A stretch of 64,000 bases of DNA from an uncultured Gaiellales bacterium (GTDB taxonomy: Bacteria; Actinomycetota; Thermoleophilia; RBG-16-64-13): positions 8,736 to 72,735 of the forward strand of contig CAYRES010000004.1 of the NCBI GenBank assembly GCA_964423425.1, read 5' to 3'. Positions 9,215-38,292 of this stretch are shown here, piece after piece. Each line of letters starts with the position of its first letter. Within the stretch, counting starts at the first letter, position 1. The position numbers and the translations under genes are program-made. The notes below the pieces were generated by a model that was not told the DNA's origin, made no database searches, and worked only from the letters and a program-made list of their open reading frames with translations.

Positions 9215-11040
9215 TAGTTCTCACCTCCGGGAAGGATGGCCTCGAAGCGGCACATCTGGGCGCAGATGGAGCAGCCGGTGCAGAAGGCGGGATCGATGAC
9301 GACCACATCTTTGTCTTTACCCTCGGGCGGTGCGGTCAAAGACAGAGCCGTGCAGCCCACCCGCAGGCAGCGCTTGCAGCCGGTACAGGCCTCGGCGTCC
9401 ACCATATAGGGCACGCCCTTGATCTTGTACTCGAGCACGCAGGGGGCTTCGGCGATGATCACCGAGGCCTCCGGGGCGGCGATCTCCTCCTTCAATGCCT
9501 CCTCTACTTCCTTCAGGTTGTAGGGATCCACTTTGCGTACCCGGGGAACCTTGAGTGCCTTCACCACCTCGGCGATATCGATGTGGGGAGCCTCCTGGCC
9601 GCAGAGCACGCAGCCCTGTCCTGGAGTGACCTGCCCGCCGGTCATAGCCGTGGTGCGATTGTCCAGGACCACGAGCACGGAGGTACCGTTGTTCCACACA
9701 GTGTTCAAGACTTCGGGTATACAGGAGTGGAAGAAGGTGGAGTCGCCCACCACCCCCACCACCGGGGCCTGGGCCTTATCCGGCATCCTCTCGGCAAGGC
9801 CTTTGTCCATGCCGTGGGCCATGCTCACGCCCGCGCCCATGCAGATCACCGAATGGAGTGCCGAGAAGGGGGGGAGAGCCCCTAGGGTGTAGCAGCCGAT
9901 ATCCCCGGTCACGTAGGCTTTCAGGCGGTTGAGGGCCACGAACACCCCGCGGTGCCCGCAGCCGGGGCAGAGCGTGGGCGGCCGGGGAGGTACGCCTTGA
10001 GCCGGCGCCGGGGCTTCTGTCAACAGCATGTCGTTGACGGGGAGATTCGCCCGTGCAAGACCGGCGGCCACGATGCGGGGGTTGAGCTCGTTCTCCAAGG
10101 GGATGAGGTCCTTGCCGCCGGCAACCTCTATGCCCATGAGGCGGATCTGCTCCTCCAAGAAGGGGTCGAGCTCCTCCACCACGTAGAGCTTCTTCACCTG
10201 GGAAGCGAAGGAGGCGATGAGGTTGCGGGGCAGAGGGTAGGGCATGCCGATCTTCAAGGTGGAGGCCTCCGGCATGGCCTCGCGCACATACTGATAGGTG
10301 ACACCGCAGGTGATGATGCCCACCTCAGGGTCGCGCATCTCCAAGCGGTTGCCCGTCCAGGTCTCGGCCCACTCCCCGATCTTGCGGATGCGCTCCTCCA
10401 CCTCGGCGTGGCGGGTGCGGGTGAAGGCGGGGAGGATGCAGTAGGAGAGATCGCGGTTCACGGCGAAGGGCTCGGCCGATTCCACCCGATCTTCCAGTTC
10501 CACCAAGCTCTTCGAGTGGGAGATACGGGTTTCGGTGCGGTAGAGCACGGGGGTGCCGAAGGCTTCGGAGAGAGCCATGGCTTCAGCCACGAAGTCTTTG
10601 GCCTCTTGGCTGTCTGCGGGCTCCATGACCGGCAGGCGGGCGAAACGGGCGTAGTTTCTGTTGTCCTGCTCGGTCTGGGAGCTGTGCCGGGATGGATCGT
10701 CGGCTGTCAGTACCACCAAGCCGCCCTTGACGCCCGAATACACGGCGTTGAACAGAGGATCGGCGGCCACGTTCAGGCCCACCAACTTCATGGTGCAGAA
10801 GGCCCGGGCGCCCACCACGGTGGCCCCCAAGGCCACCTCCAGGGCCACCTTCTCATTCACCGACCACTCGCAGTAGAGGCCGTCATAGGTGGCCAGGTTC
10901 TCCAGGATCTCGGTGGAAGGAGTCCCAGGGTAACCCGAGGCCACATTCACCCCCGCCTCCCAGATACCCCGGGCAATGGCTTCGTTTCCGGATAGGAGCT
11001 TCTTCAAGATGCAGTCCTCCCCATGGGTTGGGTGTGACAA
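9214..11040 (-). CDS. iorA: Indolepyruvate:ferredoxin oxidoreductase alpha subunit (TPP- and 2x[4Fe-4S]-binding)
   Basis: 608 aa. N-terminus LLSGNEAIARGIWEAGVNVASGYPGTPSTEI. TPP region CPGCGHRG...GDIGCYTLG. C-terminal ferredoxin motifs CTGCKRCLRVGC and CTGCSICAQMC. Confidence 0.93.
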   Translation of the reverse strand: MSHPTHGEDCILKKLLSGNEAIARGIWEAGVNVASGYPGTPSTEILENLATYDGLYCEWSVNEKVALEVALGATVVGARAFCTMKLVGLNVAADPLFNAVYSGVKGGLVVLTADDPSRHSSQTEQDNRNYARFARLPVMEPADSQEAKDFVAEAMALSEAFGTPVLYRTETRISHSKSLVELEDRVESAEPFAVNRDLSYCILPAFTRTRHAEVEERIRKIGEWAETWTGNRLEMRDPEVGIITCGVTYQYVREAMPEASTLKIGMPYPLPRNLIASFASQVKKLYVVEELDPFLEEQIRLMGIEVAGGKDLIPLENELNPRIVAAGLARANLPVNDMLLTEAPAPAQGVPPRPPTLCPGCGHRGVFVALNRLKAYVTGDIGCYTLGALPPFSALHSVICMGAGVSMAHGMDKGLAERMPDKAQAPVVGVVGDSTFFHSCIPEVLNTVWNNGTSVLVVLDNRTTAMTGGQVTPGQGCVLCGQEAPHIDIAEVVKALKVPRVRKVDPYNLKEVEEALKEEIAAPEASVIIAEAPCVLEYKIKGVPYMVDAEACTGCKRCLRVGCTALSLTAPPEGKDKDVVVIDPAFCTGCSICAQMCRFEAILPGGEN

Positions 11041-36258: not shown

Positions 36259-37290
36259 ATGGACCATTCACCTCCTGGAGCCCGTACGGCGGGCGCCGTC
36301 GCGGTCACCCTGCTTTTCTGGGGGTCTGCGTTCGCTGCCATCAAGGCAGGTTTGGACTCGTTTGGACCCGGCCAGGTTGCGTTGGGGCGCTTTCTGGTGG
36401 CTTCCGCCGCCCTCGGTTTCTACGCCTTTTCCGGACGGGTGCGTGTTCCCGCCTTGCGCGATGTGCCTGCGCTCGTCCTGATCGGGTTCCTCGGGGTGAC
36501 TGTCTACCATGTGGGCATCAGCTTCGGCCAGGTATCGGTATCTGCCGGAGCCACGAGCATCATCGTGTCGACAAACCCCATCTTCACGGCGCTCTTGGCC
36601 ACGTTCTTCCTGAAGGAGAGGCTACGGGTGTGGGGCTGGGTGGGAGTGGGCTTGAGCTTCTTCGGCTCGACGCTCGTGGCTTTCGGGGAGGGTGGAGGCA
36701 CGGGATTCAACCCGTATGCACTCTTCATCGTGATGGCTGCCGTGGCCACGGCCATCTCTTTCGTCATCCAGAAGCCCTACCTGCGTAGGTACAGGGCCAT
36801 CGAGATGACCACCTACACCATCTGGGTGGGCACCGCCTTCATGCTGGTGTTCCTCCCGGGCTTGGTGCGGCAGGTGCCGCAGGCCTCAATGGAATCACTT
36901 CTCGCGCTGGTGTACCTGGGCCTCTTCCCGGCCGCGCTTGCGTACATCACCTGGACGTATGCTCTCGCCCGTACGCCGGCGTCGGTGTTGACCACATATC
37001 TTTACGTGATTCCCCTGCTCGGCATCTTCTTCGCCTGGTTGTGGCGGGGAGAGGTACCGGTGCTGTTGTCGATTGGAGGCGGGGTACTGGCGCTTGCCGG
37101 AGTGGCTCTCGTGAACACCAAGGGCAGGGACAGGCCTGCCCTCGTACCCCCCGAGGCCGTGCCCGGGGCGGTGGTCAACGGGGCGGTGGACGACGGAGAG
37201 AACGGGAAGCCGTTCAATGAACGGGTCGACCGCAGAGGCGAGAGAGGAGACTTCGAAAGTCCTCGAGAGGACGAGCTCCGCTCACCTTGA
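36259..37290 (+). CDS. DMT superfamily (EamA-type) transporter
   Basis: Two EamA repeats (LLFWGSAFAAIKAG... and ALVYLGLFPAALAYITWTYALAR), ~10 TM segments, and a long charged C-terminal tail. Confidence 0.8.
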   Translation: MDHSPPGARTAGAVAVTLLFWGSAFAAIKAGLDSFGPGQVALGRFLVASAALGFYAFSGRVRVPALRDVPALVLIGFLGVTVYHVGISFGQVSVSAGATSIIVSTNPIFTALLATFFLKERLRVWGWVGVGLSFFGSTLVAFGEGGGTGFNPYALFIVMAAVATAISFVIQKPYLRRYRAIEMTTYTIWVGTAFMLVFLPGLVRQVPQASMESLLALVYLGLFPAALAYITWTYALARTPASVLTTYLYVIPLLGIFFAWLWRGEVPVLLSIGGGVLALAGVALVNTKGRDRPALVPPEAVPGAVVNGAVDDGENGKPFNERVDRRGERGDFESPREDELRSP

Positions 37291-37840
37291 GGGGCTGGGA
37301 GTGATCCGGAGGCATGAAGAGGAACAAGGGTATGCCCGTGAGCCCCAGCAGGCGTGCTTCCTCCCGGGCCTGCTGCAACCGGGGGTGGTAGCGGCCGGAC
37401 GTCACGGCCTCGGTCATGCCTTCTGGTTCGAGTCCCGCTTGGGCGGCAAGCGTGCGCAGGACATCGAGATCGCCTATATCGGCCGAGTCGGAGAAGTATG
37501 CGTTGAAGAGCAGGGAGTGGAGCTCTTCGAACCGCCCATGGTCACGGGCGTACTCGGCGGCGTAGAGGGCGGCCCGCGTATTCGGCATGCGGGGCGCCGG
37601 CTTGATCACGAAGCCGAACTCCTGAGCCCGGGCGGCTATGGCGTCGTACATGCGCGATACGTCGACTCCGGGCAGGTGATCGGGCAGCGACATGCCTTCC
37701 GGAGGCGTCTCCGGGTGAAGCTCGAAGCCCACCCATTCGACTTCCAGTGGAAACTCGGTTGCCAGACGGTCGGCAAGACCCTTGCCGATGAGGCAGAAGG
37801 GTCACATGTAGTCGGAGAATATGCGCACCTCGATGGCCAC
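37214..37840 (-). CDS. DsbA/FrnE-like thiol-disulfide oxidoreductase, predicted selenoprotein (UxxC; in-frame TGA at 37802-37804 read as Sec)
   Basis: The tabulated ORF (37214..37732) starts at a GTG mid-domain. Extending the same frame upstream gives VAIEVRIFSDYM-[TGA]-PFCLIGKGLADRLATEF. This aligns with the FrnE/DsbA-family N-terminus IxIxxWSDxxCPWCYIGK, and the TGA falls exactly at the first Cys of CxxC. GTG start at 37840 with GGGGAGG RBS. A stem-loop lies 14 nt downstream of the TGA. Confidence 0.65.
37770..37788 (-). promoter_or_regulatory. Candidate bacterial SECIS hairpin downstream of the in-frame UGA
   Basis: mRNA UCGGCAAG-GGU-CUUGCCGA: an 8-bp stem with a G/U-containing apical loop. 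The stem starts 14 nt 3' of the UGA. Confidence 0.45.
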
Positions 37841-37923
37841 AGTTGTGCCTCCCCACTTCGAGTACTATGGGGCTGAGTGTTCCCAGGAGTCCGCTGCCGA
37901 AAACAACCAGGATGAGGTGAGAA

Positions 37924-38292
37924 TTGGCTACTCCGAGCGCCTATGCCGCTCACGGTCGGGGAGCACTGAGCTGTGTCCTGTGCGCCCGGCTGGCTCAAGG
38001 TGAGGAGCTACTGGGGAACGAGGCTGCCGCGGTTCTCGCGGATGCGCCTGCGCGTGGAGGTATCCAGCGTCTCATGGTGGTTCCCCGCAGGCACGTCGAC
38101 CTGCTCGTTGCCCTCTCGAGCGAGGAGGCCTGTTCGCTATACGGACTCGTGGACGAACTGCGGTCGGCACCTGGTTATGAGAGCCGCCCTCTCGCCTATG
38201 ACATGACTGCGCTTGAAGGCAGCGGCACCGATGGCTCATGCGGCCACGCCTGCGTCGAGCTTCGGGCTCGCTTCCACACCCAGACCCGATGA
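37924..38292 (+). CDS. HIT-like domain protein (degenerate histidine triad)
   Basis: CVLCARLAQGE...NEAAAVLAD...RLMVVPRRHV resembles the HIT fold N-half (C.FC.I..GE..........D.......P..HV). The classic HxHxH is not intact (GHACVEL). Confidence 0.45.
   Translation: MATPSAYAAHGRGALSCVLCARLAQGEELLGNEAAAVLADAPARGGIQRLMVVPRRHVDLLVALSSEEACSLYGLVDELRSAPGYESRPLAYDMTALEGSGTDGSCGHACVELRARFHTQTR

Follow-up and report, generated by a model that had tools for sequence, protein, structure and literature searches.

A DsbA/FrnE-like gene with an in-frame TGA in an uncultured Gaiellales bacterium, a probable selenoprotein gene

Does an in-frame TGA codon end a reading frame, does it betray a pseudogene, or is it read as selenocysteine (Sec, U)? 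This question is raised by a gene on the minus strand of a stretch of 64,000 nucleotides (nt) from an uncultured Gaiellales bacterium (GenBank assembly GCA_964423425.1, contig CAYRES010000004.1, positions 8,736 to 72,735). This stretch as a whole is termed the window. A first-pass annotation, made from the sequence alone, had proposed that the gene codes for a DsbA/FrnE-like oxidoreductase and is intact, not split, if the TGA is recoded as Sec. This proposal has stood up to comparison with relatives: the TGA is retained, both of its flanks are under selection, Cys is found opposite to it in homologues, and a hairpin behind it is conserved. We consider it very likely, with a probability of about 90%, that the locus codes for a cytoplasmic thiol-disulfide oxidoreductase of the DsbA/FrnE type (COG2761) with 208 amino acids (aa), in which the nucleophilic Cys of the CxxC motif is replaced by Sec (U13-P-F-C16). 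The features of the gene are listed here; a syntenic ortholog is present on L004, a Logan contig that is the same as JGI Ga0351900_1168.

37214..37840, minus strand: coding sequence of the DsbA/FrnE-like predicted selenoprotein (208 aa, Sec being residue 13, stop codon included), based on the frame, the Pfam DSBA match and the FrnE alignment
37848..37854, minus strand: Shine-Dalgarno-like GGGGAGG, 7 nt 5' of the GTG start; L004 has GAGAGG at equal distance from its GTG
37838..37840, minus strand: GTG start codon, the earliest start past an in-frame TAG; in homologues, the distance from the start to the Sec/Cys column is 10-12 codons
37802..37804, minus strand: in-frame TGA, codon 13, predicted U13 of the U-P-F-C redox motif; kept in L004 and in 74/79 loci, aligned with the Cys of FrnE CPWC
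37793..37795, minus strand: TGC codon for the predicted resolving Cys (C16 of UxxC); the column is invariant across the family
37730..37732, minus strand: internal GTG, the start in public gene calls (172 aa, P0001); not the true start, as the 36 codons 5' of it are under purifying selection
37328..37330, minus strand: Pro171 codon in a T-G-I-P motif, where the thioredoxin fold has its cis-proline loop; invariant in the family alignment and matching FrnE GITGVPFF

Reading frame, redox motif and selection

The minus-strand frame reads ...P*YSKWGGTT-VAIEVRIFSDYM-TGA-PFCLIGKGLADRL..., which corresponds to the codons TAG-...-GTG(37840) GCC ATC GAG GTG CGC ATA TTC TCC GAC TAC ATG TGA(37804-37802) CCC TTC TGC. 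From GTG 37840, there are 12 codons in all before the TGA, and 195 codons follow until the stop at 37214. The frame contains neither a frameshift nor an additional stop. The open reading frame (ORF) as tabulated and as publicly called has only 172 aa. It starts at GTG 37732, 23 codons past the TGA, and lacks the part of the domain that contains the CxxC motif; the public annotation drops the first 36 codons of the gene. When the TGA is recoded, residues 5-199 of the 208-aa protein match positions 2-190 of the 191 positions of the Pfam profile DSBA (PF01323; E 1.4e-25, 90.6 bits with a gathering cutoff of 25.6). Two points of the first-pass annotation are borne out by the frame and the domain match: the tabulated ORF starts within the domain, and a GTG start with a GGGGAGG ribosome-binding site is located 12 codons upstream of the TGA. 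The TGA is not an assembly artefact because three independent ENA assemblies (L001-L003) carry the identical TGA-bearing sequence.

The top matches of the recoded protein in the PDB are FrnE and SCO1869. The best solved relative is FrnE from Deinococcus radiodurans (PDB 5cnw/5cp1; E 2.4e-18, residues 3-175). IEVRIFSDYM-U-PFCLIGK from the window is aligned to IRVDIWSDIA-C-PWCYIGK from FrnE, which places the TGA on the first Cys of CPWC, and GLTGIPLF is aligned to GITGVPFF. The two proteins share the arrangement of strand beta-1 and the redox motif (IxVxIxSDxxCPWCYIGK), the T-G-[IV]-P loop and the lack of a signal peptide. The N-terminus of the window protein begins directly at beta-1, 12 residues ahead of U, and Pro171 is predicted to adopt the cis conformation. 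The top PDB matches, the COG2761 name given to homologues at JGI ("predicted DsbA family dithiol-disulfide isomerase") and the missing signal peptide point to the FrnE/COG2761 subfamily rather than to periplasmic DsbA. Unlike FrnE, which has Cys-Pro-Trp-Cys, the window protein would have Sec-Pro-Phe-Cys, and the sequence identity is modest. FrnE has an additional pair of Cys residues in a C-terminal tail. In the window protein, the C-terminal part holds a single Cys (RLCGRPVH), which even L004 does not share.

Relatives were collected in a scan that included one genome per GTDB species (the window's own genome is not among them). This resulted in 237 relatives, the best 80 of which were used, and nearly all of these 80 are metagenome-assembled genomes (MAGs) from Smithella, Syntrophaceae or other Syntrophales. 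Among the motif-bearing loci from this set, which represent different GTDB species, the Sec column is TGA in 74 of 79 and TGC or TGT in the other 5. A Cys codon (TGT/TGC) is found opposite to the TGA in L008, L013, L014, L023, L047 and L067. One of these (P0005/L008) is a JGI metagenome contig with a genuine TGT. The expected correspondence of the TGA with the first Cys of CxxC is thus seen in the CPWC of 5cnw, in five species-representative loci and in L008. In the homologues, Cys is the sole pairing partner at this column, and Trp is never found. A metagenome scan for further relatives returned only duplicates of L004 and L023 and distant Cys forms.

In protein databases, the family looks different. 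Among the 120 matches listed for the recoded sequence, most are called with 162-181 aa and cover the last 80-87% of the query. Selenoproteins commonly leave such a footprint of N-terminally shortened calls in databases. Several "full-length" homologues among the matches listed carry a Trp (W) at the Sec column (e.g., P0002, P0004, P0008, P0009 and P0014). P0004/L005 (101-691), the sole such case that was checked at the DNA level, has a TGA that was translated under code 4 on short contigs. Trp at the Sec column and shortened calls look like a systematic annotation artefact in this family, which could serve as a selenoprotein detector.

L004 is syntenic with the window over genes for RmuC, an MBL-fold protein, two small ORFs, the DsbA-like protein, EamA, an LLM oxidoreductase, an MFS protein, a Fer4 protein, a beta-eliminating lyase and an ABC transporter. 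Its ortholog has 60% aa identity to the window protein and retains the TGA (VTFVIRVFSDYI-TGA-PWCLIGKG). For the 36 codons 5' of the called start, the ratio of nonsynonymous to synonymous differences per site (pN/pS) between the window and L004 is 0.34, at a synonymous divergence (dS) of ~1.2, and 18 of the 31 differences are at third positions. The pN/pS is 0.40 for the following 110 codons. In the 60 nt 5' of GTG 37840, the two sequences are 32% identical, which is the random level. Because purifying selection extends upstream while the 5' flank shows only random identity, the region across the TGA has long been translated in both lineages.

These data bear on two alternative explanations. 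According to the first, the gene is a pseudogene, caused by a nonsense mutation (TGC/TGT to TGA) in an ordinary Cys-type FrnE gene. A single base change separates TGA from TGC or TGT, the public gene callers treat the gene as interrupted, and no Sec machinery was found in the window, its extension or related loci (see below). We nevertheless consider a pseudogene very improbable, given that the TGA is kept in a relative at this synonymous distance with purifying selection on both of its flanks, and in 74 of the 79 loci of the family. There are no frameshifts or further stops, and the hairpin described below is under synonymous-site constraint. Relatives with a sense codon together with frameshifts, the pattern which the first-pass annotation had named as evidence for a pseudogene, were not encountered: the relatives have an intact in-frame TGA or a Cys codon, with both flanks conserved.

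According to the second, the annotated 172-aa protein from GTG 37732 is the true product, with a DsbA fold that is devoid of the redox motif, the similarity further upstream being a remnant. This agrees with the public gene call P0001. The 36 upstream codons, however, evolve as coding sequence, in contrast to the true 5' flank, and the chances of this explanation are slim. The protein would begin in the middle of the domain, without beta-1 and without the active-site helix. The internal GTG has no conserved counterpart: the L004 gene is called from a different ATG, and the Syntrophales genes are called from several positions.

A hairpin resembling a bacterial Sec insertion sequence

The candidate for a Sec insertion sequence (SECIS) in the window is the following:

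37770..37788, minus strand: hairpin UCGGCAAG-GGU-CUUGCCGA of the bacterial SECIS (bSECIS) type, located within the I-G-K-G-L-A-D codons (8 base pairs (bp), -11.3 kcal/mol)

The stem starts at the 14th nt past the TGA, so that the UGA is separated from the stem by 13 nt and from the loop by 21 nt. According to a 2026 review (PMC13188914), the published bSECIS model has a loop of 3-9 nt, a stem of 4-16 bp, a G in the first two loop positions, a UGA-to-loop distance of 16-37 nt and a minimum free energy of -7.5 kcal/mol or lower. The window hairpin is within all of these limits (8 bp, GGU loop, 21 nt, -11.3 kcal/mol). The core of the family consensus hairpin is borderline with respect to the energy limit (-7.4 kcal/mol); it reaches -10.6 kcal/mol when the lower stem is included. 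The first-pass annotation had described an 8-bp hairpin with a GGU loop which begins 14 nt past the TGA, the right distance for a bacterial SECIS, and this description is correct; the hairpin is, in addition, conserved across the family.

A hairpin is found at the SECIS position in all of the 76 distinct TGA forms (76/76). When RNAalifold was applied to 82 distinct sequences, it independently predicted the same stem (7 bp, loop GGGCA). The distant Cys-only relatives (L067 and L093-L095), which serve as a negative control, have no hairpin at this position. In the Syntrophales, the hairpin has nearly the same sequence as in the window (AUCGGCAAGGG(C/U)(A/C)UUG(U/C)CGA) but mostly consists of 7 bp with a 5-nt loop, as compared to 8 bp with a GGU loop. 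The Rfam database has no model matching the hairpin. The constraint is visible at synonymous sites. Among the conserved degenerate codons of the gene, the three lowest third-position entropies belong to codons in the stem (Val 0.10, Ile 0.11 and Gly 0.17). Elsewhere, most four-fold sites have values of 1.1-1.9, and the Gly codon in the loop has a value of 1.06.

L023, a contig from a MAG labelled Gaiellales (GC content 65%), has the Cys (TGC) form of the gene in the same neighbourhood. Here, the hairpin at the SECIS position is still present (10034-10099, -8.5 kcal/mol). This locus also holds the only double (compensatory) change of the family, from C-G to G-C, via Gly GGC to GGG and Val/Ala to Leu CTC. 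The L023 hairpin points to a fairly recent switch from Sec to Cys, or to pairing that was maintained before the switch.

If the hairpin functions as a SECIS, translation would start at GTG 37840, and the hairpin with its GGU apical loop, 14 nt past the UGA (37804-37802), would recruit SelB-GTP-Sec-tRNA(Sec). Sec would then be inserted, and termination would be avoided. The product may alternate between two redox states, selenolate/thiol and selenenylsulfide, with the N-terminus of helix alpha-1 as the site of the reaction. By analogy to FrnE, it may act on disulfides in substrate proteins or small molecules. The genes selA, selB, selC and selD would be encoded elsewhere in the genome.

Points against Sec decoding, genetic code and host

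Several observations weigh against Sec insertion at this codon. One group concerns the Sec machinery. The 64-kb window contains no selA, selB, selD or tRNA-Sec, nor do the 9 kb past its right end or the syntenic contigs L004 and L023. A tblastn search with the SelA, SelB and SelD proteins from E. coli gave no match in the window and in ~1.3 Mb of related loci, and ARAGORN and Rfam found only a tRNA-Gly in the window. The 9-kb right extension (L096) has hydantoinase and carboxylase genes and no sel genes. In the Syntrophales loci (L011-L090), there is no selA, selB or selD within 10 kb. Sec competence of the genome is predicted from the gene; the sequence searched for the machinery is only a part of the genome. 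A 95-nt "tRNA-Val(cac)", called by ARAGORN in L004 (3066-3160, minus strand), has a length typical of tRNA-Sec. It was rejected because of its wrong anticodon and because Rfam gives no match to tRNA or tRNA-Sec at E <=1. ARAGORN reports no tRNA in the window counterpart of this region, and the L004 call is probably a false positive.

The other group concerns the hairpin. Covariation is almost nil, with one compensatory pair among the 82 sequences and 88% of cells being paired, compared to 87.4% in shuffles. The near-absence of covariation is explained by the hairpin sequence, which hardly varies. The structural support is thus from conservation, not from covariation, and it is the synonymous constraint which is the informative signal. 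When the window is taken alone, a 71-nt fold favours an alternative structure (z = -1.56 against shuffled sequences), so that the hairpin is not statistically remarkable. Its significance results from the comparison with relatives and not from the window sequence. There is also a competing fold on the minus strand (37754-37804, -21.6 kcal/mol over 51 nt), in which the GA of the UGA and the subsequent CCCU are paired with AGGGUC. This UGA-containing fold is specific to the window and is conserved neither in L004 nor in the Syntrophales consensus. An approaching ribosome would probably melt it.

The genetic code is standard and has not been reassigned because TGA is an ordinary stop codon in 11 of 22 neighbouring genes. 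This also speaks against the last alternative, decoding of the UGA other than as Sec, by near-cognate insertion of Trp or Cys or by a lineage-specific reassignment: this is hardly credible, as homologues pair the column with Cys only and never with Trp, a conserved SECIS-type hairpin occupies precisely the place that SelB would require, and the W in public calls on short contigs reflects the code choice of the caller and not biology. When the window was scanned for other genes with an in-frame TGA by a crude approach, based on GC content at third codon positions, no other convincing candidate emerged.

The arginyl-tRNA synthetase (ArgRS) from the window has its closest relatives in proteins named "Thermoleophilia bacterium" (63-69% identity), and the synteny with L023 agrees with this placement. 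L023 is syntenic with the window at 42.3-51.1 kb, where the ArgRS segment is 77% identical. Peng et al. 2016 (Table S1) list SelD, SelA and SelB for Solirubrobacter soli, Solirubrobacter sp. URHD0082, Patulibacter americanus and Conexibacter woesei Iso977N. Solirubrobacter belongs to the class Thermoleophilia, so that the Sec-decoding trait has a precedent among cultured members of this class.

Known relatives, neighbourhood and implications

In marine metagenome sequences from the Sargasso Sea, Zhang et al. 2005 recognized a family of DsbA-like selenoproteins (COG2761, UxxC; PMC1088965). It was reported from four bacterial genomes in 2006, from Deltaproteobacteria and Firmicutes/Clostridia (PMC1794560), and a survey from 2016 counted 45 proteins in 41 organisms (PMC5029168). 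A 2026 review has the entry "DsbA-like protein form 1, PF01323, UxxC", with Asgard archaea among the hosts (PMC13188914). The window protein has the same Pfam domain, the UxxC at the same position and a homologue name of the COG type. Also as in form 1, the putative SECIS follows the UGA directly, within the ORF, and agrees with the bSECIS model. At the level of sequence, the gene agrees with the DsbA-like form 1 family in every defining feature. Identity with the subfamily of the published form 1 examples is likely, as judged from COG, Pfam and motif rather than from a direct sequence comparison. The hosts named for form 1 in the accessible text of these sources are Deltaproteobacteria, Firmicutes/Clostridia, the Sargasso Sea metagenome and Asgard archaea, unlike the window, which is from an uncultured Gaiellales-like member of the Thermoleophilia.

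NCBIfam has no model for the FrnE-like family with U-P-F/W-C. Model NF041057 (Rcas_1661 thioredoxin-like (seleno)lipoprotein) represents another family with a thioredoxin-like fold and Sec-containing members, and it shows a weak local match to the window protein (E 3e-4). Membership was rejected: the score is 20.4 bits with a cutoff of 190, only the C-terminal part is matched, and there is no lipoprotein signal.

The proteins with U-P-F-C from Syntrophales (Smithella/Syntrophaceae) have 44-49% aa identity to the window protein and the same Sec column. They are from another phylum, and the GC content is 42-58%, as compared to 63% for the window. Among the species representatives of the Syntrophales (L011-L090), the TGA form is found in ~94%, which places this family among those thiol-oxidoreductase families of the order in which Sec occurs more consistently. 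Recent acquisition from Syntrophales by horizontal transfer was rejected as an explanation, given that the GC content of the gene matches that of the host, that the locus is syntenic in L004, and that a neighbour-joining tree places the three sequences from actinobacteria (window, L004 and L023) in a clade of their own.

It is tempting to speculate that a Syntrophales-centred FrnE branch with U-P-F/W-C is almost obligately Sec-containing (~94% TGA), with the SECIS inside the I-G-K-G-[IL]-V-D codons, and that the gene and its SECIS are a module common to anaerobic Syntrophales and Gaiellales-like Thermoleophilia, one of the three actinobacterial members having since changed to Cys with the hairpin kept. 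Some of the Syntrophales and Gaiellales-like MAGs come from one study. This scenario is tentative, and we consider it rather doubtful as a whole. If true, it would mean that a selenoprotein gene was transferred between phyla long ago along with a SelB-compatible SECIS, and that a Sec-using anaerobic clade of Thermoleophilia has so far gone unnoticed.

The neighbours of the gene (a divergent 122-aa ORF, a convergent EamA transporter gene, an LLM oxidoreductase gene and an MBL-fold protein gene) give no functional hint, and the gene appears to be monocistronic. Its 3' end (37214-37290, minus strand) overlaps the EamA gene (36259-37290, plus strand) by 77 nt. The corresponding overlap in L004 is only 4 nt; therefore, one or both of the C-termini are extended in the window. 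The divergent ORF (37924-38292, plus strand) is located 83 nt 5' of the selenoprotein start. It has no Pfam match, and its position is conserved in L004 (119 aa). On visual inspection, it looks like a degenerate version of a HIT-like protein and has a CxxC close to the N-terminus.

In our assessment, the predicted selenoprotein is a genuine and unsurprising addition to a family known since 2005, and it leaves the knowledge of selenoproteins unchanged. Its novelty with respect to the literature is limited to the lineage of the host, the very high frequency of TGA in the Syntrophales branch and the clear footprint that the SECIS leaves at synonymous sites. The annotation is to be corrected: the public protein P0001 is a 172-aa fragment without the active site, and most of the 120 homologue clusters listed are similarly shortened. 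For the organism, the gene implies that UGA would be decoded as Sec in this uncultured lineage of the Thermoleophilia. For the family, it offers a clean example of a bacterial SECIS within conserved codons, which is seen as a local collapse of synonymous variation.

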